A stretch of DNA of 45,528 nucleotides from Candidatus Fermentibacteraceae bacterium (GCA_021162285.1 JAGGYZ010000299.1:1-45528); one strand, 5' to 3'; positions 11,803 through 25,263 are shown, counted from the stretch's first letter. Numbers and translations are program-made. Notes: generated by a model from the letters alone, not told the origin.

Positions 11803-12606
11803 TCAAGATATTGTCTCCGCTCTGTAAATTATACCGGCTTCGCCCTGAAGCCACCAGCCGCTTTCGTCTTTTCCCACGGTAAGAAAAAGCCCGCTCTTCA
11901 CCGCTATTCTAACAGGTAGAGTTACAGAATCAAATCTTTCGGAGGCCACAAGAGCGCATGCTACAGCACCGGTTCCGCAGGCTAGAGTTTCACCCTCCAC
12001 ACCTCTCTCAAAGGTTCTGATCGACATCGATCCATCCTGCTGAACCTTTACCCAGTTTACATTCACACCTTCCGGTCCGAATTCATCATGCGATCTTATT
12101 ACATGAGCATATTCTTCAAAAGTCCCGTCTTTAATATTTTCACTGAAAACAACTGCATGGGGCACGCCGGTGTCTGCAAAGCCTGCACCGATAACAATAC
12201 CCTCTGCAACATCAATTGCCTTCTCCAGGTAATGAAGAATCGGCTCAGTCATCCAGATTCTTGCTTCTCTGTTTCCGGTAACGCTGCCTTTGTGGACTCC
12301 AGCATCACTTACAAAAGTGAATTCAACTCCTGTTTCTACCATTCCCAGCTCTGCTGCAAACCGGCAGATGCACCTTGCTCCGTTGCCGCACATGCTCGCG
12401 GCTCTGCCGTCTGAATTGTAGTACTTCATGGCGAAGGCGTGAACAGAATCATCTGTTATCTCTATAAGCCCGTCTGCCCCGACAGAAAGACCTCTCCTGC
12501 AGAGTTCTGAAATTTTTTCACGGTTCAGTAATCGGGAAAGACTGCCGTCGCGGTTATCAACCATAATGAAATCGTTCCCGGCACCGCTCATTTTTGTAAA
12601 TTTCAT
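11803..12606 (-). CDS. dapF: Diaminopimelate epimerase
   Basis: 267 aa. MKFTKMSGAGNDFIMVDNRDG N-terminus. Both catalytic Cys contexts are present (SMCGNGARC and LACGTGAVA). Confidence 0.9.
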   Translation of the reverse strand: MKFTKMSGAGNDFIMVDNRDGSLSRLLNREKISELCRRGLSVGADGLIEITDDSVHAFAMKYYNSDGRAASMCGNGARCICRFAAELGMVETGVEFTFVSDAGVHKGSVTGNREARIWMTEPILHYLEKAIDVAEGIVIGAGFADTGVPHAVVFSENIKDGTFEEYAHVIRSHDEFGPEGVNVNWVKVQQDGSMSIRTFERGVEGETLACGTGAVACALVASERFDSVTLPVRIAVKSGLFLTVGKDESGWWLQGEAGIIYRAETIS

Positions 12607-14738
12607 AGGTTTTGTGTTCCCATTCTTTCAATGATTTCCATGTGATATTCTGCTTTGTCGAAAAGGTTGTTGTTCCGAAGCAGCCTCACCAGATCGAAAC
12701 GAAGCTGCGGATCCGGTCCCCAGCAGTCCAGGTATGCAACAAAATCCTCCTCCAGCTCGTCGATAGAGTAGTCTCCCGCCAGATGAGCCTGAAGAAGTTC
12801 CTGCAGAAGACCTACTGCAGCATCTGCGGGTACCTCATCAGGTGATCCCGATAAAAGCAGCAGAGCTGCCGAAATCTTCTGGAAGTCACCTGTTTCCATG
12901 CCCTGGTCTGCCAGGTAAATGGCCGTTTCAACAGGCGAGTTCACAACTGCACCTGCAATTTCCCTGTCATCCAGGAAAGGTGCGTAACGAACTTCCCAGA
13001 GTGGTTGACGGGGTAATCCTTCAATGCTTCCGTTAAGACTGTATACCCTTATGGAAGGTCCCTGCCAGACGATTCCAAGGCTTTCAAGAGACTGAGGATA
13101 GTAGTGAAGCCTTACTGCAAGACAACCATCGGGAATCTCTGTGAGACCTGCCAGATAGACAAGACCCTGTGGAGACCTGTCAAAAACAAAGTCGGCCTGG
13201 TAGATAAGATATTCGGCACCCTTGTCCTCCATGAAGGCTACCATTTCCTGTTCGGTTCCAAAGATTTTCCCGGCAAATTCAATGATAGTTTCCCGGTTTT
13301 CTGTGTTTTCAAAAAAGGTGTGCGTAACCACCGGCATATCTGCATAAGCTGAAAGCAGACCTGAAATGTGCCAGAAGGAAAGCACTGTTCCCCGGTTGTC
13401 TTCCGCCCACCCGATGAGCCCTGTGAGTTCATCCTCTGCAAGAAGAGATGACGAGTCTTCAAAAGTCAACCCTGCATCTGACAGCAAACCTGCAATTTCC
13501 GGGGCGTACATTGTCTGCAGTCCAAATGCTGTAAGAACAACAGGAAGAGCCCACCTGCGGTTTCTGCATACGGCCACCACCGGCGGAATAATCCCAATGG
13601 CCAGAACAACCAGGAGTCTGTCGAAAAACAGGTATCCGGCAACTGAAAGAGGTACAAGGAAATACATCAGCGACTGTCCGGTCTTCTCCCTGAACCGTTT
13701 CCACCCCAGAGCCGCTGCGAGAACTGCCACTCCGAACAGAAGCACCATCTGCCCTGACGACGGAGAAGTGTAACCGCTTACCCAGAAAAGACGAGCATCA
13801 CCTGAAAGTAAAGCAGGGTTTTCGGGGTGACTGAACATGAATTTGAGTTTTGCCGCTATCACCGAGGCCACATGACCGCCTGAAGAAGATCTGAAAAAGA
13901 AACCGGAGGCTAAAGAAACAGCCAGACCTGTCCAGGGAACAATTCTGCTTCGGTACACCGATGAAACCACAGCAGCAACAGCCATCAGAACAGCAGGAGA
14001 ATAAATGGCTCCATCGTGACGCATATGGCTTAGAACAACAGAAGCAAGCAACTGACTTACAGCAAGAGGCAGGACTGTTTTAAGCCCCGGCCTTCTGAAG
14101 GTCATCCACACAAAAACAAAGAATGACAAATACCCTGTAACCTTCCATGATGCCAGAGCCAGAAACAGCACCAGTGCCGCTGTAACAGAGTATTTCAGTG
14201 TTTGTTTCTTCCTGCTGCTCATATCTATGAGAGCAAATGTAAGTACAATCAGAGGAAGGGCCACAGTTTCACGATAGAAACTTTCCCCCCGAGCCCTGAG
14301 AAGTGCCGGGAGAAATACGGCGTAGAGTGCTGCACCGGAGAAAGATTCCTGGAAGGAAAAATTTGAATTTAGCATCCAGTAGAAAATTACAGGAACAACC
14401 AGAAGAGGAAACAGGAGACAAAACACATGGAGGAAGCCGTCAAGGTCACCGCCTGTTACGCTGTGAATTCCACCTGCAATGTACTCTTCAAAGATAGAAT
14501 TCTCGGCCGTTATCAAACCCTGTGGACGCATAACCAGCGTATCAACAGCAGGAATACCGCTGCCGTTTGAAACCATCCTCGTATACCTGTAAGCCTGGGT
14601 TGTCTCCCCCTGCATTCTGGGTGGAGGAGGCATAACTGATGTGGCAAAAACACTCCGGAAAACAAAACCGCCCGCTACCAGGAACAGCAGAAGCAGAGCT
14701 GTACGGAGTTTTGACCTGCTGTCAGCCTGTGCGTGCAT
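12603..14738 (-). CDS. Polytopic GT-C-like membrane protein with C-terminal soluble domain; divergent STT3/AglB/PglB-like (tentative)
   Basis: The ORF track starts at 14804. ATG 14736-14738 (MHAQADSR...) reduces the overlap with the upstream GTPase gene to 17 nt. There are about 11-13 hydrophobic helices followed by a soluble region of about 290 aa. The segment LIGWAEDNRGTVLSFWHISGLLSAYADMPVVTHTFFEN...AEYLIY sits just after the last helix. It parallels the STT3 pattern (W..en.....vlsWWDYGy.i.......t.aDn.....Yv.v), but WWDYG is replaced by SFWHIS. Confidence 0.45.
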   Translation of the reverse strand: MHAQADSRSKLRTALLLLFLVAGGFVFRSVFATSVMPPPPRMQGETTQAYRYTRMVSNGSGIPAVDTLVMRPQGLITAENSIFEEYIAGGIHSVTGGDLDGFLHVFCLLFPLLVVPVIFYWMLNSNFSFQESFSGAALYAVFLPALLRARGESFYRETVALPLIVLTFALIDMSSRKKQTLKYSVTAALVLFLALASWKVTGYLSFFVFVWMTFRRPGLKTVLPLAVSQLLASVVLSHMRHDGAIYSPAVLMAVAAVVSSVYRSRIVPWTGLAVSLASGFFFRSSSGGHVASVIAAKLKFMFSHPENPALLSGDARLFWVSGYTSPSSGQMVLLFGVAVLAAALGWKRFREKTGQSLMYFLVPLSVAGYLFFDRLLVVLAIGIIPPVVAVCRNRRWALPVVLTAFGLQTMYAPEIAGLLSDAGLTFEDSSSLLAEDELTGLIGWAEDNRGTVLSFWHISGLLSAYADMPVVTHTFFENTENRETIIEFAGKIFGTEQEMVAFMEDKGAEYLIYQADFVFDRSPQGLVYLAGLTEIPDGCLAVRLHYYPQSLESLGIVWQGPSIRVYSLNGSIEGLPRQPLWEVRYAPFLDDREIAGAVVNSPVETAIYLADQGMETGDFQKISAALLLLSGSPDEVPADAAVGLLQELLQAHLAGDYSIDELEEDFVAYLDCWGPDPQLRFDLVRLLRNNNLFDKAEYHMEIIERMGTQNL

Positions 14739-15300
14739 GGCGCTTGGCCATCTGGGTAGCAATAATTTTAAGAGTTTCCGCAGGACCGCTACCGCCGATG
14801 GCAACTGACTCCACAGTAGGCCACTGGAACCTGTTCAGTTCTTCATTCATTCTAGCGGTAGACATAATTCCGGGAAGATCGCGTTTGTTGAACTGCAGAA
14901 CCATGGGAATCATGGACATGTCCAGGCCGTAGCTTTTCAGGTTGTGTTCCAGATCATCTATGGTACTGATGTTTGCCTCCGCCCTTTCCTTCTGACTGTC
15001 AGCAACGAAAACAACTCCGTCTATGCCGTCAAGAATTACCCTTCTGCTGAGTGCATAATACGCCTGACCGGGCACAGAATACAGGTGGAGTTTGATTTTC
15101 ATGTCTCCGATTCTGGCGAAATTCACAGGAAGAAAGTCGAAAAACACTGTTCTTTCGCACCTCGTACAGAGAGTTACAAGTCTTCCTCTGTTTTCCGGGG
15201 CAATGATGTCGCGTATCCCCCTGAGATTGGTTGTCTTTCCGGAAAGCCCGGGACCGTAGTAGACTATTTTGTATGCAACCTCATCACCTGACCTGTGCAT
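14722..15300 (-). CDS. MglA-family Ras-like small GTPase, paralog 1
   Basis: The ORF track starts at 15369, inside hslU. I prefer ATG 15298-15300, preceded by AGGGGGAGGG. Signatures: P-loop YYGPGLSGKTTNL, ERTVFFDFLP, LYSVPGQ (MglA-type G3 instead of DTAGQ), FNKRDL. Confidence 0.8.
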   Translation of the reverse strand: MHRSGDEVAYKIVYYGPGLSGKTTNLRGIRDIIAPENRGRLVTLCTRCERTVFFDFLPVNFARIGDMKIKLHLYSVPGQAYYALSRRVILDGIDGVVFVADSQKERAEANISTIDDLEHNLKSYGLDMSMIPMVLQFNKRDLPGIMSTARMNEELNRFQWPTVESVAIGGSGPAETLKIIATQMAKRHARTG

Positions 15301-15334
15301 CCCTCCCCCTATTCGTAAAAAACCTATAATAATC

Positions 15335-16636
15335 CTAGAGAATATAACCCTCTTCGTCTTTTCTTTCAACCAGCACCGCCAGCCTGCTCTGCGCCTTCTT
15401 TCCAGTAAGCCTTACCCTGCCCTTGATTAGATCCGGCGCACCAAAAAGATACTCGTCGAACAGAAATGAAAGAACAGAGCGGAGCCTCCTGGCACCAATG
15501 TCCTCCTTTTCCTCATTCAGATACCTGGCTGTTGCAGCTATTTTTTTCTTTGCCTGCTCTTCCACCACAAGTTTCAAACCGTCTGCTTCCAGAAGCCTTG
15601 TGTACTGTTCAAGAATACAGCCCTCAGGTTCTGTAAGAATACGAAAAAGGTCTTCTTCCGAGAGCGGGTCAAGTGAAACCCGCAGTGGAAACCTTCCCTG
15701 AAGCTCGGGAATCAGGTCTGCAGGGCTGCTTCCGTGAAAAGCTCCAGCTGCGATAAACAGTATGTGATCTGTTTTCACAGGACCGTACCTGGTTGAAACC
15801 GTACACCCCTCAACCAGAGGAAGAAGGTCTCTCTGAACTCCCATCCTCGACACATCAGGGCCGCTCCCTCCTTCAGAGCCTATTATTTTGTCTATCTCAT
15901 CAACAAAAACAATACCCTCTTCCTGTGCCAGACGAAGACCTTCCTGAATGTGATTTCCACCGTCAAGAATTCTGGCAATTTCTTCATCGAACAGTTTGTT
16001 TCTCGCGTCGGCCACTCTGAGTGTGATCTTCTTCCTGCGCTTCCCAATAACTTTGTCCAGCATGGTTTTCATCTGGTCGTTTATCTGATTGTCAAATCCC
16101 TGCCCGGGTATCATGGGAAACACTTCAACACCAATCGCCCTTTCCGTGATGGAAAGCTCTATCTCAACATCATCCAGTCTGCCATTTTTAAGAAGTTCCG
16201 CAAGTTCCCCGGCGGATCCGAACTCAATGCCGGTTCTCGAGAGAGCATCCAGTAGTTTCTTTTGAACCCTTGCCTCGGCCTCGGCCTTTTTCTCTTCCCG
16301 GGCCTTACCGGTGGCAAGATTCACTGCTGAACGCACAAGATCGCGGATTATTCCCTCAACATCCCTGCCTACATAACCCGTTTCCGTGTACTTTGTTGCC
16401 TCAACCTTTACAAAAGGTGCTCCCACAAGATTTGCCATCCTTCGGGCAATCTCTGTTTTACCCACCCCGGTGGGACCCATCATGATCAGGTTGCTGGGGT
16501 AGATCTCCGACTGCATGGGTTCTTCAACAAGCTTCCTTCTGTACCTGTTCCGCAGAGCAATGGCAACGGTTCTTTTAGCCTTGTCCTGGCCGATAACGAA
16601 CCTGTTAAGCCAGGCAACAGTTTCCGCAGGTGTCAT
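15335..16636 (-). CDS. hslU: ATP-dependent protease ATPase subunit HslU
   Basis: MTPAETVAWLNRFVIGQDKAKRTVAIALRNRYRR, Walker A GPTGVGKTEIARR, and IVFVDEIDKI. The start is taken at ATG 16634-16636, in an ATGA overlap with the hslV stop. ATG at 16654 is the alternative. Confidence 0.92.
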   Translation of the reverse strand: MTPAETVAWLNRFVIGQDKAKRTVAIALRNRYRRKLVEEPMQSEIYPSNLIMMGPTGVGKTEIARRMANLVGAPFVKVEATKYTETGYVGRDVEGIIRDLVRSAVNLATGKAREEKKAEAEARVQKKLLDALSRTGIEFGSAGELAELLKNGRLDDVEIELSITERAIGVEVFPMIPGQGFDNQINDQMKTMLDKVIGKRRKKITLRVADARNKLFDEEIARILDGGNHIQEGLRLAQEEGIVFVDEIDKIIGSEGGSGPDVSRMGVQRDLLPLVEGCTVSTRYGPVKTDHILFIAAGAFHGSSPADLIPELQGRFPLRVSLDPLSEEDLFRILTEPEGCILEQYTRLLEADGLKLVVEEQAKKKIAATARYLNEEKEDIGARRLRSVLSFLFDEYLFGAPDLIKGRVRLTGKKAQSRLAVLVERKDEEGYIL

Positions 16637-17181
16637 GGTTTTTTGAGTTCGCATATTTCCTCCGACATGATCTTGCCACCTGTATAAATACATATTTCGC
16701 TTGCTATTACAATAGCTTCTCTCGCTATTTTCAGAGGTCCCATTCTGGTATGCTTCATAAGAGACCTTGCCGCAGCAATTGCATAGGGAGATCCGGAACC
16801 CACCGAAACGATACCGTCAGGCGACTCGACTACCTCTCCAGAGCCTCCAATGACAAGGGCGTGATGGCTGTCCACTGCTGCGATCATGGCGTTGAGCTCC
16901 CGGAGGTACTTGTCTGCTCTCCACTCCCGTGCAAGCTCCATGGAAGCTCTCGGAAGATTACCGCGAAAGGCTTCAAGTTTCTCCTCCAGCCTTTCCACCA
17001 GTGCAAAAGCATCTGCACCGGCACCGGAAAAGCCAACGAGAACAGTTCCTCCGCTGAGTTTTCGCAGTTTTCTGGCACTCATCTTCATGATGGTATCACC
17101 AAGGGTAACCTGACCATCTGCCGCCATTGCAGCTTTTCCGTTTCTTACAATACCGATAACCGTGGTTGACTTAATGTTCAT
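16633..17181 (-). CDS. hslV: ATP-dependent protease subunit HslV
   Basis: The ORF track extends to 17406, into the upstream gene. ATG 17179-17181 (ATGA overlap with the upstream stop) gives a 182-aa protein, MNIKSTTVIGIVRNGKAAMAADGQVTLG..., with GSGSPYAIAAARSL. The conserved TT is preceded by a 5-residue extension. Confidence 0.9.
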   Translation of the reverse strand: MNIKSTTVIGIVRNGKAAMAADGQVTLGDTIMKMSARKLRKLSGGTVLVGFSGAGADAFALVERLEEKLEAFRGNLPRASMELAREWRADKYLRELNAMIAAVDSHHALVIGGSGEVVESPDGIVSVGSGSPYAIAAARSLMKHTRMGPLKIAREAIVIASEICIYTGGKIMSEEICELKKP

Positions 17182-20123
17182 TGCTCCTCCAGCAGATGAG
17201 CCAGCGTGTTTCCTGTTATTTCTATGGACAGTGCATACTCTTCGCTGATTCCAAGATCGTTTACAAGAACAGCATAGGCAAGCCCTGTGTATCCGTTGCC
17301 GGCAAGGCTTACCGCTCTTGCTTCCGATGAGAATGTTTGTGTGGAAAGCAGGAACCACAGAGCTATTTCCTTTGCGTGATCGGGGTCGGCAACAAACCTG
17401 TCGCAAAGATCATTGATCAACTGTGCTTCACGCTGAGTTTTCATCTGAGAAACCATGATATTTCCAAGAGAAACAGCCGCCATCACCCCTCCTCTGGCCG
17501 CGAGTCCGGCCATTTCAACTGCTATGGATGCGGCTGTAATATCCTGTTTCCATTCAAGTGCCGCACTTTCCTGATCAGTGTGATTGAATACGAATGCGAG
17601 GGCAGTGTCAAGCATACTGAGACCAGTGTTGACAGGACTGTAAATGGTGTACTGATCCACCGTCTGCGCCATAAGATCGAGCACTGGCTGGTATTCCGAA
17701 CCCCATCCTGCCTGAAGATCCGACAGCAGTTCTCTGGCTGCAATGTAGTTTCCGAATGAAAGGTCTTTCTCTATGCGTATCCATTCCTGTGCAGGAGAAC
17801 CGTCGCTGATAAAATCGATGACGCCGTCAAAAGCTGACTCCTGTTCAAACTCACCGGCCACAGCTGCAAGCTGAGACGAGGCGGCAGCGGCAGTGGAGTT
17901 GTTGTATTCAACTGCCATACTGTCCATGTATGCCGTTGCCTGCTGAACGTAGTCTATTGCCGCATCAGCACCGTCCCTGCCGTGAATAAACCTTGCCTTC
18001 AGCAGAACAAAACCGGGCATGATACTGAGCCATTCCTCCGGCATGGCTGAAAACACAGCCTCAGACCTTTCCAGACACACGCCGACCATTTCCGTGTTGC
18101 CCTCAGCCATAAACTGATATGCGAGACGGTTGTAGGCACTGACATAGTTCCTTGCGATCTGGATTGCCTGATCGTCCTTGTAGACAGAAGGATCTGCAAG
18201 GCCTGTGGTAAGAAAACTGTCTGCAAGGGGCCATCCCAGATCGGTATTTACAAGCTTACGGACAGGCTCGTGCATTACTCTGAAAGCAATTCCCTGCATC
18301 TGGAGATAGCTCTCTACATAACTTCTGTTCTCCCCTGAAACTGTTCCGGCAATCATTACTTCCCTGCCGTGAATACTTCTGTTTCTGAGCATATCGATAA
18401 GAAGAAGATCCTGCATGGGAATTGAACCCTGGCTTCCTCTTCCCATTGATGGAACCGGTATGCTTGTGTTACCGTCATTCAGCACCCACGGCCACTGACC
18501 GTTAAATGTGTCGTCAAGCACCTGCCTGTCATACTCTCCTGTGACCGGCAGCCCTTCCGATGAAACATGAAAGAAATTGGGACCCCAGATAAATATGGGC
18601 TGCATGTTGTCAATAGTTTCCTGTGAATAGCTGAGAAGATCAGGGTCTTTTGCAACAAGCTGCTCCACATACCATCTTGTATTCATCAGACTCAGATTGG
18701 AAATGATCACATCACGGCGAATCCCAAGCACTCCCTGAGCAAACCACAGTGGAAAAGTATCGTTGTCTCCGTTGGTGATTATCACCGCATTTTCCGGGCA
18801 TGACTGCAACAGGTTGATGCCGTAATCACGCGCAGCATAATCACCTGAGCGGTCACAATAATGCCAGTTCATTCCCAGAGATATAAGTGGAAAAACAACC
18901 ATCACCCATGCAGCGTTCTTCACTGCTCTGCTCTTTGCCGAGGTAAACAGTGAACCCATACCGATCATGGACAAAACGGCAAAGAAAATGAAAGATGCTC
19001 CGAAAAAGTAATCTCTCTCGCGAACTTCACCCAGCGATGTTCCCTCGGGTCCTGTCTTAAAATTCAGATACACCACAAAGGCGAAACTCGCCATGATAAA
19101 AGACAACCCCACAAGAACCAGAAGATCCGGCCGTCTTTTTCCCATAACCACAAGGCCGGTAACTGCAAGAACGGCCATTCCCATCCAGAGAAATGCCCAC
19201 ACTACACCGCCTGGAGTTCCCAGGGCGCCTGTCCATGCCTCCGGTCTTCCCACCTGCCAGGACAGGTATTCTGCAAACAGTCCCAGCTGATCCTGAAATG
19301 GTCCTTTTCTGTTGAGAATAGAGACCTGTCCGTACTGCTTTCTCTCAATGGCTTCCTTGAATTCAGTCCATACAGAGGGATTAGTTTCGTTGATTTCAGG
19401 GTTTTGTATCGCCCGGATAGGCATGTAAAGGTGAATGCTGAAGGCAAGAGCCATAAGACCCAGAAACATCACAGGAAACCCCGGAGATTTCCACTCAAAT
19501 GCTTTCTTTCTAACAGCGTACAGTACATACATTGCCACAATAGGAAGGGTAACGATAAGAGCACTGAGATGGTTTCCTATTGCAAGTGTCATAAGGTAAC
19601 CGGTGAGTAACAGCTGGCGACCAGCAGGTCTGCCGTGAAGCCTTCTCTCTATCCACAGGTCAAAAACCCACAGAATAAGAAGGGAAAGAAGGGCTGCCAT
19701 TGCGTAGGTTTCAGTTGCATTGTTGTTTCTCCATACGGTGTAGCTGAAAGCAGCCATAAGTGCTCCTGCAACGGAAACCGGTCTGTAGAGCCACGGCTCA
19801 AACCCCAGCCTTACGCTCCACCTCTGTATAAGCCTTGCCACAAGACCGATGGTAACTGTTCCTGCGATTGCGCACATAAGGTTAACCCTTGCGGCTATTG
19901 AGGGGATGAAACTGAACAGCAGAGTACTTACTCTCCCCATAAGCACAAAGAAAGGTACTCCCGGCGGATGTGGAATCCCCACAACCCACGAGCAGGTAAT
20001 GTACTCACCACTGTCCCAGAAGCTGACGGATGGCGCCAGGGTAACTGCGTAAACGGTAAAAGCGGCCATGGCTGCAGCCAGTGCAACGAGCCTGTCTGTT
20101 GTAAATGCACCTTTGATATTCAC
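17178..20123 (-). CDS. DUF2723 (TMEM260-like, GT-C fold) membrane protein with long C-terminal helical domain
   Basis: 981 aa. The N-terminal signature TLAPSVSFWDSGEYITCSWVVGIPHPPGVPFF is characteristic of DUF2723. There are about 11 or more hydrophobic helices in the first ~440 aa, then a soluble domain of about 500 aa with a helical-repeat appearance. GTG start in a GTGA overlap with xerC. Its stop overlaps the hslV ATG. Confidence 0.7.
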   Translation of the reverse strand: MNIKGAFTTDRLVALAAAMAAFTVYAVTLAPSVSFWDSGEYITCSWVVGIPHPPGVPFFVLMGRVSTLLFSFIPSIAARVNLMCAIAGTVTIGLVARLIQRWSVRLGFEPWLYRPVSVAGALMAAFSYTVWRNNNATETYAMAALLSLLILWVFDLWIERRLHGRPAGRQLLLTGYLMTLAIGNHLSALIVTLPIVAMYVLYAVRKKAFEWKSPGFPVMFLGLMALAFSIHLYMPIRAIQNPEINETNPSVWTEFKEAIERKQYGQVSILNRKGPFQDQLGLFAEYLSWQVGRPEAWTGALGTPGGVVWAFLWMGMAVLAVTGLVVMGKRRPDLLVLVGLSFIMASFAFVVYLNFKTGPEGTSLGEVRERDYFFGASFIFFAVLSMIGMGSLFTSAKSRAVKNAAWVMVVFPLISLGMNWHYCDRSGDYAARDYGINLLQSCPENAVIITNGDNDTFPLWFAQGVLGIRRDVIISNLSLMNTRWYVEQLVAKDPDLLSYSQETIDNMQPIFIWGPNFFHVSSEGLPVTGEYDRQVLDDTFNGQWPWVLNDGNTSIPVPSMGRGSQGSIPMQDLLLIDMLRNRSIHGREVMIAGTVSGENRSYVESYLQMQGIAFRVMHEPVRKLVNTDLGWPLADSFLTTGLADPSVYKDDQAIQIARNYVSAYNRLAYQFMAEGNTEMVGVCLERSEAVFSAMPEEWLSIMPGFVLLKARFIHGRDGADAAIDYVQQATAYMDSMAVEYNNSTAAAASSQLAAVAGEFEQESAFDGVIDFISDGSPAQEWIRIEKDLSFGNYIAARELLSDLQAGWGSEYQPVLDLMAQTVDQYTIYSPVNTGLSMLDTALAFVFNHTDQESAALEWKQDITAASIAVEMAGLAARGGVMAAVSLGNIMVSQMKTQREAQLINDLCDRFVADPDHAKEIALWFLLSTQTFSSEARAVSLAGNGYTGLAYAVLVNDLGISEEYALSIEITGNTLAHLLEEQ

Positions 20124-23218: not shown

Positions 23219-24661
23219 TTATTCAATGGCGGAAAGCCATAGAGCCACAGGACCGCTGACAGACTCCCAGCAGCTCTCTCTGTAACCCATGATATTCTGA
23301 AACTGTCTTGGACTGAGAATACCTGCTACCTCAGAGAAAGCCTCGTGCACCAGACTGTATACAACAGCCTCCTGGTAGCGGTTTTCTCTGTATATAAGTA
23401 CCAGCTGGTCGATGTCTGCAGGTTCCAGCATGGCCGCCGCATCCCTCATGAGACGAATTCTTACTTCTGCTTCTTCCGGATGAAGAATCACCATAACCAC
23501 AACGGTTGTAGAGTCTTCATAAACCAGAAATGCCCCGTCATCCACCACGATCGGAATTGCTGACGCAAGCAGCTCCAGCTTGCTGAACACTACCTCACTG
23601 CTTTCAACGGAAACTTCTGCATCTGTGTTCCGGGGAGCTCTGGTCTGAAAACTGATGGATACTGGATTCTCTGCAGGTATACAACTGTCTGGCAGAACAA
23701 TAAACCGCAGACCAAAAGGATCCTCAACAGCAAGAGAATCACTCTTTACTGACAACGTATCTGCCGGTACACCATCTATATCCGTAGAATCCGGTGATGT
23801 AGTAATTCCGGTGCTGATTGAATCCTGACCCGAAACACCGGATGTATCAGCAGAAACCAACCCGGTGTTAGATGTGGAATTCCCGGTAACCGTCGAGAAA
23901 AGATTCAGCGGATCAATGAAGTAAAATACGGCAGCCAGAGCAAGCACAAGAAAAACAGCGACCACCGTTTTCAAAACAGTTGATCCTGCACCTGTTTTTT
24001 CACTGACAGGCTGTTCCGTATCAAATTCAAGGCCCTCTCTGTTCTCTGCGGTGACACCTTTATTGGGTCTGTCTACAGATTTTCCATCTCTGGCACAGTG
24101 ACTGCATACATGAGCCACTCTGTCAAAGCAATTCCTGCAGGTAAGTTGCCCGCATGTTCTGCACGGTGCAAGTCTCTCGCCGTCTGTTGGTGTTCTTCCA
24201 CAAATGTGGCACCTTGCCGTAGAGAGAATTTCCTCGCTTGCAGAAGTAATTACAATTGGTTCCTCTTCCTCTTCCTCAACTGCAGGCTGCTGAACTGTCT
24301 CTTCACTCTGTGCATCCCCGGGCTTTTCCGTGGTTTCTACCCCGGGTTCAGCCTCAGTTCCCTCAGGATTGACTGTTCCTCCTGAAGAATCCAGGACAAC
24401 TCCAGACGGTGATTCTTCACTGATACCAGCCTCGTCCTCCAGGCGGGGAAGAAGATCGATATAGGGATAAAGATCCTTCTGAATAACCCTTGCCTCGTTC
24501 ATTGGAACGGCTTCTTTGATCACCGATGGCGAGTTGTTAACAGCATTCTCAGCCTCTGTCACCGAAAGATCAAGACTAGTAATGAGAAGTTTTAAAACTT
24601 TCTTCTTTTCCTCTTCTCTTCCCAGTCTCACAAGCAGCAGATCAACAAAAGAATCAGACAT
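23219..24661 (-). CDS. Uncharacterised bitopic membrane protein: L7/L12-CTD-like N-domain, acidic linker, 4x CxxC zinc module, one TM helix, Ser/Thr-rich spacer, C-terminal extracytoplasmic domain
   Basis: 480 aa. Residues 1-70 (KKKVLKLLITSLDLSVTEAENAVNNSPSVIKEAVPMNEARVIQKDL) parallel the ribosomal L7/L12 C-terminal domain pattern (KxxVIKxVRxxTGLGLKEAKxLVExxPxxxKExVxKxxAExxKxxL). Cys residues 151/154, 167/170, 175/178 and 186/189 form four CxxC pairs. TM helix at about 229-249 (LKTVVAVFLVLALAAVFYFI). Its ATG shares 1 nt with the mglA stop at 24661. Confidence 0.6.
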   Translation of the reverse strand: MSDSFVDLLLVRLGREEEKKKVLKLLITSLDLSVTEAENAVNNSPSVIKEAVPMNEARVIQKDLYPYIDLLPRLEDEAGISEESPSGVVLDSSGGTVNPEGTEAEPGVETTEKPGDAQSEETVQQPAVEEEEEEPIVITSASEEILSTARCHICGRTPTDGERLAPCRTCGQLTCRNCFDRVAHVCSHCARDGKSVDRPNKGVTAENREGLEFDTEQPVSEKTGAGSTVLKTVVAVFLVLALAAVFYFIDPLNLFSTVTGNSTSNTGLVSADTSGVSGQDSISTGITTSPDSTDIDGVPADTLSVKSDSLAVEDPFGLRFIVLPDSCIPAENPVSISFQTRAPRNTDAEVSVESSEVVFSKLELLASAIPIVVDDGAFLVYEDSTTVVVMVILHPEEAEVRIRLMRDAAAMLEPADIDQLVLIYRENRYQEAVVYSLVHEAFSEVAGILSPRQFQNIMGYRESCWESVSGPVALWLSAIE

Positions 24662-25263
24662 CAGGCTCTTCCCTCCAGTATTTCAAATTGTCTGTGCAGC
24701 CTTGCTATTACCATCCTACTCACCCTGCGCAGGGTCTCAAATACGCCTTTGCCTTCCGATGCCACTGATTCAAGACATGCAACACGGGACAATCCCAGTT
24801 CACGAACAATCTCATCCACAGGAATAGCATCATGCAAGTCCCTCTTGTTGCACTGTAGAACAAGACTGACACCCTTCCTTCTCTGGTTGCGGAGATTCTC
24901 TTTCAGGTCTCTGAGACTTGCAATGTTGGCATCCATTCTTGACTCCTGAGAATCGGCAACAAAAACAATACCGTCAACACCCTGAAGAATCAGTCGGCGA
25001 CTGTCTGAATACATAGCCTGACCGGGAACACTGTAAAGATGCAGACGGATCTTGAAACCATTGATCTCTCCGGAATCCAGCGGGAGGAAATCAAAAAACA
25101 GAGTTCTATCGTTGCCAGCGGCCAGAGAAATCAGTTTTCCCCTGGAATCTGAATCAACCTGACTGTGAATGTATTTTACATTTGTTGTCTTCCCTGACAA
25201 CCCCGGACCTGCATACACGATCTTGCAGTCAATTTCCTTAGCACTGTAGCTCACAGTAGCCAT
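24661..25263 (-). CDS. mglA: MglA-type Ras-like small GTPase, paralog 2
   Basis: 200 aa. By my recollection it is close along its whole length to Myxococcus MglA: EIDCKIVYAGPGLSGKTTNVKYI, GKLISLAAGNDRTLFFDFLPL, RLHLYSVPGQAMY, GVDGIVFVADSQ, QCNKRDL, GVFETL. Confidence 0.85.
   Translation of the reverse strand: MATVSYSAKEIDCKIVYAGPGLSGKTTNVKYIHSQVDSDSRGKLISLAAGNDRTLFFDFLPLDSGEINGFKIRLHLYSVPGQAMYSDSRRLILQGVDGIVFVADSQESRMDANIASLRDLKENLRNQRRKGVSLVLQCNKRDLHDAIPVDEIVRELGLSRVACLESVASEGKGVFETLRRVSRMVIARLHRQFEILEGRA

Follow-up and report, generated by a model that had tools for sequence, protein, structure and literature searches.

The MglA-family small GTPases of Myxococcus xanthus and Thermus thermophilus (Group 1) usually work with MglB as their GTPase-activating protein (GAP). 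Their solved structures have established the roles of an intrinsic arginine finger and of a catalytic glutamine. Some homologs have no coupled MglB: in one survey, 59 of 449 MglA homologs were such orphans, among them the studied SofG of M. xanthus and the MglA of Bdellovibrio bacteriovorus (PMC4316618). The gene neighbourhoods of Group 1 MglAs vary widely, and that survey reports no GT-C glycosyltransferase among them (PMC4316618). Among GT-C enzymes, DPY19 is metal-independent and has no DxD motif (PMC10154233), while the eukaryotic TMTC1-4 proteins join an N-terminal GT-C membrane domain to non-cytoplasmic TPRs that are thought to bind the acceptor (PMC7801869). Here we analyse a stretch of 45,528 nucleotides from Candidatus Fermentibacteraceae bacterium (GCA_021162285.1 JAGGYZ010000299.1:1-45528), called the window below. 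In it, the gene of an orphan MglA paralog, MglA-2, overlaps the gene of a 711-residue membrane protein, Mem711. We find that MglA-2 is a strongly conserved, MglB-independent paralog and that Mem711 is, by its predicted fold and its profile matches, a GT-C glycosyltransferase of the DPY19/STT3 class. Their invariable adjacency probably reflects a gene block that has hardly been rearranged in the phylum. Every gene treated here is on the minus strand. The features of the GTPase gene are as follows.

14722-15300, minus strand: MglA-2, an intact MglA-family small GTPase of 192 residues, belonging to a Fermentibacteria-specific paralog clade
15301-15310, minus strand: Shine-Dalgarno-like AGGGGGAGGG, read directly, abutting the ATG of MglA-2
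14722-14738, minus strand: 17-nt overlap of the MglA-2 stop (TGA, 14722-14724, inside the Mem711 gene) with the Mem711 start (ATG 14738)

A first-pass annotation had recognised this open reading frame (ORF) as a second MglA paralog with its own Shine-Dalgarno (SD) sequence. The gene does carry YYGPGLSGKTTNL, ERTVFFDFLP, SVPGQ and NKRD, and its product matches solved MglA structures over its full length, both from M. xanthus (PDB 6hjh/6h17/5ymx; E 1e-53, residues 4-185) and from T. thermophilus (3t12; E 8e-49). It is about 50% identical to characterised MglA proteins and 47% identical to the other paralog in the window, MglA-1. The spacing of the SD is short, with the GGAGG core 1 nt and the GGGG run 4-5 nt from the ATG.

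MglA-2 shares with the M. xanthus and T. thermophilus proteins the P-loop GPGLxGKTT, the sequence xRTxFFDF, a non-Asp hydroxyl residue before PGQ, the glutamine and NKRD. A P-loop of the form GxxxxGKT and a canonical G4 motif [NT]KxD are the criteria for MglA Groups 1, 4 and 5 (PMC4316618). In the alignment, eRTVFFDF of MglA-2 corresponds to DRTLFFDF, and at G3 LYSVPGQ corresponds to LYTVPGQ, so that a serine stands in place of the threonine that is Thr78 in M. xanthus MglA (PMC3000849). Further differences are RTV for RTL, FA for LG and GP for GV near G5. All 16 orthologs examined retain the P-loop GPGLSGKTT, the RT pair (arginine finger and threonine), SVPGQ and NKRD. With the P-loop, arginine finger, glutamine and NKRD intact, MglA-2 would be a GTP-binding switch that works without the usual MglB GAP, and it is probably cytoplasmic or membrane-peripheral. 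Like SofG and the Bdellovibrio MglA, which are functional, it belongs to the MglA family and has no coupled MglB. SofG differs in having extensions, while MglA-2 is a single-domain protein, and neither of the two studied orphans has been described next to a GT-C gene.

MglA-2 is under strong constraint. Its tree is the shortest among 14 proteins of the block (3.15, versus 7.4 for HslU and 12.6 for the GT-C), and MglA-1 and MglA-2 are the two slowest-evolving proteins of that set. Sequence identity is bimodal: MglA-2 orthologs are 64-100% identical, and everything else is at most 54%. In a set of 5.8 billion proteins, Fermentibacteria are the only source of sequences with 64% identity or more, and the next best are ordinary MglAs at 51-54%. 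The MglA-2 clade is monophyletic with support of 100/100 and sits on a long lineage-specific stem, which sets it apart, together with the missing MglB neighbour, from the M. xanthus and T. thermophilus proteins. Orthologs are named inconsistently in databases: several (P0270, P0279, P0292 and others) are a "signal recognition particle receptor subunit beta" at JGI, and the NCBI names are "gliding-motility protein MglA" or "ADP-ribosylation factor-like". One ortholog (G009:C84:10733-11302) lies in an open frame of 376 residues, about twice the usual length, through fusion to the upstream gene or a missing upstream stop.

The second MglA gene of the window is arranged in a similar way.

24661-25263, minus strand: MglA-1, the first paralog, 200 residues (E 3.5e-64 to T. 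thermophilus MglA)
23219-24661, minus strand: a 480-residue membrane protein with a weak match to the L7/L12 C-terminal domain, overlapping MglA-1 by 1 nt

MglA-1 begins after a gap of 525 nt and has an SD. As the first-pass annotation had proposed, it too is followed with an overlap by a membrane protein gene, and this 480-residue protein stays after MglA-1 in other genomes. The same annotation had held that both paralogs lack an adjacent MglB, and indeed no Roadblock/MglB domain was found on the contig of the window. The source genome has three MglA paralogs, however, and the third, MglA-3, lies on contig C229 together with the only two Roadblock domains of the genome. There (locus L044, 6334-12772), a hybrid histidine kinase/receiver gene, an ORF of 98 residues and an MglB-like Roadblock gene (183 residues) precede an overlapping MglA-3 gene (195 residues), and genes for a DUF4388/PATAN protein, a DnaA-like ATPase and a second Roadblock protein (126 residues) continue the module. 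Two C25 peptidases with type IX secretion tails are encoded beside it.

Roadblock domains occur in 44 of 70 genomes of the phylum, in 29 of the 46 high-quality genomes and in 6 of 14 genera. The remaining 17 high-quality genomes have no Roadblock gene at all; each has exactly two MglA matches, MglA-1 and MglA-2, except the genome G038, which has one. The module of MglB and MglA-3 is present in 6 of the 14 genera and is lost along with all Roadblock genes. By contrast, MglA-1 and MglA-2 are found in every high-quality genome, save that MglA-1 is absent from G038, and they are 73-80% identical between families, versus 58-62% for MglA-3. Since the 17 genomes without Roadblock keep MglA-2 (and all but G038 keep MglA-1), the MglB-coupled module is accessory and the two orphans are core. 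MglA-2 keeps all catalytic motifs and has the shortest tree of the block, and it is therefore not a decaying duplicate but an MglB-independent, strongly conserved paralog.

Each paralog is monophyletic with full support. A grouping of MglA-1 with MglA-2 in our first tree (91/88) became a polytomy when eight more outgroups were added, so we do not propose an order of descent for the paralogs. In G038, which is 94% complete, MglA-1 is wholly lost, and tblastn found no remnant of it; the membrane protein headed by the L7/L12-like domain persists nonetheless (L039, G038:C8, 15811-18632), and the MglA-2 of this genome is on a long branch (0.5). The same-family genome G065 (5 contigs, 88% complete) has no MglA, DPY19-like enzyme or HslU, the block being either missing from the assembly or lost in the lineage.

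The gene that MglA-2 overlaps had been described as encoding a GT-C-like protein. This description holds and can be made more exact, as DPY19/STT3 class, from the predicted fold and from sequence profiles.

12603-14738, minus strand: Mem711, by AlphaFold2 model, Foldseek and profile matches a GT-C glycosyltransferase of the DPY19/STT3 class, 711 residues
13476-14738, minus strand: transmembrane domain of Mem711, residues 1-421, with 13 helices and conserved periplasmic loops EL1, EL2 and EL5 in the model
12969-13475, minus strand: predicted periplasmic alpha/beta "dome", residues 422-590, from the secondary structure of the model and the full-length fold match
12606-12968, minus strand: TPR-like C-terminal domain, residues 591-711, all-helical in the model

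The AlphaFold2 model of Mem711, built on the alignment of its orthologs, has a pLDDT of 86 and a pTM of 0.82. In Foldseek searches it has its best E-values with STT3A/B, yeast Stt3 and AglB (1.7e-12 to 2e-8), followed by PglB (3e-6). DPY19 enzymes transfer mannose from polyprenyl-phosphate-mannose to the tryptophan of a WxxW motif. The model matches one of them, CeDPY19, the tryptophan C-mannosyltransferase DPY-19 of C. elegans (7zlg, 7zlh, 7zli), over about 680 columns, with TM-scores of 0.60-0.63 by query and 0.65-0.67 by target and an rmsd of about 6. AftA/AftD and ArnT are among the lower-ranked matches.

The sequence of Mem711 itself has no Pfam or NCBIfam match, TPR included, and does not reach the curated cut-off of Pfam Dpy19 (PF10034; 27.2 bits). 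Among 24 orthologs, 10 have weak Dpy19 matches (best E 1.9e-4), 11 match TPR_14, 8 match TPR_19 and one has a weak PMT match. A profile made from these orthologs retrieved 850 cluster representatives from a library of 1.8 billion proteins. Ten of ten distant homologs tested exceed the Dpy19 cut-off (44-70 bits), and nine of them have TPR tails. A broad family profile that includes Mem711 finds CeDPY19 (1.8e-27) and STT3 (about 1e-25) by sequence. Compared with PDB sequences, the narrower ortholog profile gave only weak TPR matches. The evidence that Mem711 is a DPY19 homolog is thus transitive, and it would be classed as a homolog and not as a scored member of the family.

Compared with known enzymes, Mem711 resembles CeDPY19 in its 13-helix GT-C fold, in the alpha/beta dome on the outside and in the lack of DxD; it differs in being bacterial, in scoring below the Pfam cut-off and in its added TPR-like tail. 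No bacterial DPY19 homolog is discussed in the DPY19 literature that we searched. The resemblance to STT3, AglB and PglB extends to sequence: in an N-terminal profile alignment, RARGESFYRETVAL of Mem711 corresponds to RSVAGSYDNEAIAI of STT3, and the EL1 pattern P-x-G and the EL2 pattern R..G....E align with HPLG and RSVAGSYDNE of STT3. Within EL2, GESFYRET stands against GSYDNEA, so that the glutamate (E157) is kept and the first aspartate of DxE is lost. At the place of the WWDYG motif of oligosaccharyltransferase (OST), Mem711 has LSFWHISGLLSAYA (SFWHISG), a correspondence taken from the fold match and from reading the sequences, not from a printed alignment. Because WWDYG is absent and the first acidic residue of DxE is lost, Mem711 is not an OST by its defining motifs. 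The TMTC1-4 proteins have the same architecture of GT-C and TPR domains, but their clan is PMT, and they lie outside the DPY19/STT3 class.

Conservation of Mem711 is concentrated on one side of the membrane. The periplasmic loops have a mean identity of 0.80 and 54 invariant residues, whereas the cytoplasmic loops comprise 38 residues in total, with a mean identity of 0.40 and none invariant. EL1, EL2 and EL5 together hold 46 invariant residues, including E45, D66, E85, R148, R150, E157, H289, D314 and R316; the wider family keeps E45, D66, R156, E157, H289 and W319. The dome has invariant W456, S459 and G460 as well as conserved FFEN and YQADF. In CeDPY19, the catalytic carboxylate is Glu71 in EL1, and arginine residues hold the phosphate. 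Mem711 has the invariant acidic residues E45, D66 and E85 in EL1 and conserved R148, R150, R156 and R316, which are no more than candidates for these roles. The positive-inside pattern of the loops and the match to STT3/DPY19 suggest an N-in/C-out topology. Conservation on the predicted periplasmic side is as expected for an active enzyme. Such an enzyme would move a sugar from a polyprenyl-phosphate carrier onto an acceptor, most likely a protein, that is periplasmic or secreted. The reaction may be metal-independent as in DPY19.

The Fermentibacteria GT-C is on a long lineage-specific stem. Relatives occur, according to a genome scan, in Elusimicrobia, PVC bacteria, Armatimonadota and Planctomycetota. 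The nearest homolog from outside Fermentibacteria (P0127; L045, 8828-9787, on a metagenome contig) is flanked on one side by genes for a GT4 glycosyltransferase, a methyltransferase and a sugar epimerase. On the other side are MeaB, a G3E GTPase, and a methylmalonyl-CoA mutase cluster; this MeaB goes with the mutase genes and is no relative of MglA.

The 17-nt overlap of the two genes, which had been made to depend on a start at ATG 14738, is confirmed. Of 36 genomes in three families, 33 have an ATG at position -17, -20 or -23 from the MglA-2 stop, never with an SD. Since ATG 14738 is the conserved start, Mem711 has 711 residues. For this protein, originally given as 711-733 residues, we rejected the alternative start at TTG 14804, as it is not conserved, unlike the ATG at -17.

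MglA-2 is one of few genes in the array that begin after a real gap (34 nt from the end of hslU) with an SD of their own. The next two starts, those of the GT-C gene and dapF, lack an SD and overlap the preceding stop. This arrangement argues for MglA-2, the GT-C gene and dapF being carried on one message, with MglA-2 as the putative first cistron of a translationally coupled chain. A relative of the genome G005 has yielded a metatranscriptome contig of 983 nt that contains the end of a DUF2723 gene, MglA-2 in full and 200 nt of the GT-C gene. These RNA data are assembled contigs, not reads, and come from the relative of G005 only. None of the RNA runs searched contained sequence of the source genome itself, whose DNA is present in hydrothermal-vent metagenomes. 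Judging by the sources of its homologs, this genome belongs to the genus Ca. Sabulitectum of the candidate phylum Fermentibacteria. Co-expression of MglA-2 and the GT-C gene is thus observed in the RNA contig of a relative and otherwise suggested by the predicted co-translation. We also considered promoters and terminators, with one candidate of the former kind.

15341-15369, minus strand: sigma-70-like TTGAAA-17-TATATT, inside the 3' end of hslU, matching at 10 of 12 positions

Sites of this kind number 13 in the region, versus 12.6 expected by chance. Terminator-like stems at 14667-14691 were rejected: they lie inside the coding region of helix 1 and have only 3 G-C pairs, and the counts from the scan are near chance.

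The pair is embedded in a conserved gene block, to which the following neighbours belong.

11803-12606, minus strand: dapF, overlapping the GT-C stop by 4 nt and following the GT-C gene in 36 of 36 loci
15335-16693, minus strand: hslU, upstream neighbour of MglA-2 in 34 of 36 loci
17178-20123, minus strand: a DUF2723/TMEM260-like GT-C of 981 residues (PF11028, E 2.5e-36), the second GT-C of the block

The order MglA-2, GT-C, dapF is the same in all 36 loci, and both MglA-2 and the GT-C gene are present, always adjacent, in all 46 high-quality genomes. The neighbourhood on which the first-pass annotation had rested its proposal is therefore conserved in relatives, with MglA-2 before the GT-C gene in every Fermentibacteria genome examined. 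This conservation extends far beyond the pair. From MglA-1 through the gene that follows the TPR protein, the same genes are present in 45 of 45 blocks, except that hslVU is lost in four and MglA-1 in one. In the genera g10 and g11 (G001, G004, G005, G006; loci L036 and L038), hslV and hslU are absent from both the block and the genome; only a ClpX-like match remains, and the DUF2723 GT-C gene directly precedes MglA-2.

Overlaps are also common. Among the same-strand junctions of the array, 12 of 18 overlap, including topA-xerC, xerC-DUF2723, DUF2723-hslV and Mem711-dapF. The region from 7478 to 31102 reads as a series of chains on the minus strand, each headed by a gene that is set off by a real gap and preceded by its own SD. 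MglA-1 and the 480-residue protein form one coupled chain, topA, xerC, DUF2723, hslV and hslU another, and MglA-2, the GT-C gene and dapF a third, after which come a tRNA-Gly gene and a chain of four genes. The two GT-C enzymes of the block (17178-20123 and 12603-14738) each have a helical tail on the outside, and the eukaryotic relatives of both, TMEM260-like and DPY19-like, are protein mannosyltransferases.

The first-pass annotation had taken the repeated layout as a sign of a functional pairing of GTPase and membrane protein rather than chance adjacency. Our results do not support this interpretation. With dapF next in line at all 36 loci and overlaps at 12 of the 18 junctions, neither the adjacency nor the overlap singles out MglA-2 and its neighbour. 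Outside the phylum, none of 41 loci with a homologous GT-C gene has an MglA-like gene within 4 kb. These loci are from Elusimicrobia, Verrucomicrobiota/PVC, Armatimonadota, Planctomycetota and metagenomic contigs, and were found partly with a nine-sequence subfamily alignment, which samples mainly Elusimicrobia and PVC bacteria. A test of rate covariation, run on 14 block proteins over 40 genomes and 77 branches, gives the pairing no support: MglA-2 and the GT-C correlate at r = -0.40, which ranks 90th of 91, and the best partner of MglA-2 is MglA-1 (r = 0.21). We consider it probable that the two genes are adjacent because about 20 kb of housekeeping and envelope genes form an almost completely frozen block, within which MglA-2 and the GT-C would be functionally independent.

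Several points weigh against the frozen block as the explanation. The two MglA paralogs each lead a coupled chain in which a membrane protein with a large outside domain comes second, which could be more than coincidence. The loss of hslVU in two genera, the single rearrangement observed, removed the upstream neighbours of MglA-2 and left it joined to the GT-C gene. Both MglA-2 and the GT-C are on long lineage-specific stems, as co-adaptation would produce. The test of rate covariation is crude, with 14 background genes, 40 genomes, short and slow proteins and noisy branch lengths. The topology of Mem711, on which the cytoplasmic and periplasmic assignments depend, is deduced, not computed. 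The RNA contig could represent DNA carry-over, and it is from a relative, not from the source genome.

The alternative that these points favour is a dedicated module of MglA-2 and the DPY19-like enzyme. GTP-bound MglA-2 would dock on the enzyme, directly or via the membrane or an adaptor, and set where or when envelope proteins are glycosylated, for instance at a pole; MglA-1 and its downstream membrane protein would work likewise. Consistent with this are the adjacency without exception, the 17-nt overlap conserved in three families, the presence of both genes in all 46 high-quality genomes and the RNA contig across the junction. Moreover, as no MglB is needed, another partner must set the nucleotide state. 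However, dapF and other unrelated neighbours show the same adjacency and overlap, no locus outside the phylum pairs the enzyme with MglA, and the rates of the two proteins rank next to last in covariation. The 38 cytoplasmic residues of Mem711 form short, unconserved loops that would give a GTPase little to bind. We considered that MglA-2 might dock on the TPR-like tail, as orphan MglAs have TPR partners, and rejected this since the tail would be periplasmic in the predicted topology. To our knowledge, no small GTPase has been described that controls a GT-C enzyme, which also counts against such a module. We regard the partnership of MglA-2 and the GT-C as unlikely. The statement that no such pairing occurs in described MglA systems agrees with the published survey (PMC4316618). 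Each gene is an addition to a known family, and the pair is undescribed but unproven.

Still less probable is that Mem711 is an inactive scaffold derived from a GT-C, or a transporter-like protein, without WWDYG and DxD. This would fit the lack of any Pfam or NCBIfam match of its own, the SFWHISG in place of WWDYG and the lost first aspartate of the STT3 DxE. However, its invariant residues are concentrated in EL1, EL2 and EL5, where the active sites of GT-C enzymes lie, and E157 aligns with the catalytic-site glutamate of STT3. The six residues kept by the wider family include this glutamate. DPY19 itself works without a metal and without DxD (PMC10154233).

Finally, MglA-3 directly follows a Roadblock/MglB-like gene and precedes a PATAN (DUF4388) gene, and an MglB beside another copy had been named beforehand as what would explain MglA-1 and MglA-2 as degenerate duplicates, but the idea that they are redundant or decaying copies of MglA-3, or are served in trans by its MglB, is very improbable and already largely refuted, as the MglB-coupled module is accessory and the two orphans, with all their catalytic motifs intact, evolve more slowly than MglA-3, are the slowest proteins of the block and persist in 17 genomes without Roadblock.

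In Fermentibacteria, two strongly constrained MglA paralogs thus belong to the core genes, and the MglB-MglA module of the textbooks is optional. Given the 17 good genomes without Roadblock, MglA-type switches can run on other regulators. Mem711 anchors a large bacterial branch of what its fold and profiles indicate is the DPY19/STT3 class, and so bears on the origin of the eukaryotic enzymes of C-mannosylation and N-glycosylation. The locus is also a caution: two genes may stay adjacent and overlapping throughout a phylum because their whole block is frozen, without being a functional pair. It is doubtful, though conceivable, that MglA-2 is an MglB-free cytoplasmic switch, made in fixed proportion with a DPY19-type periplasmic enzyme and deciding where or when that enzyme acts, with MglA-1 and the L7/L12-headed membrane protein as a sister system. 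If this were true, it would represent a new, GTPase-controlled form of envelope glycosylation, would link the control of cell polarity to the glycosylation of envelope proteins and would provide the first function for a bacterial DPY19 homolog.

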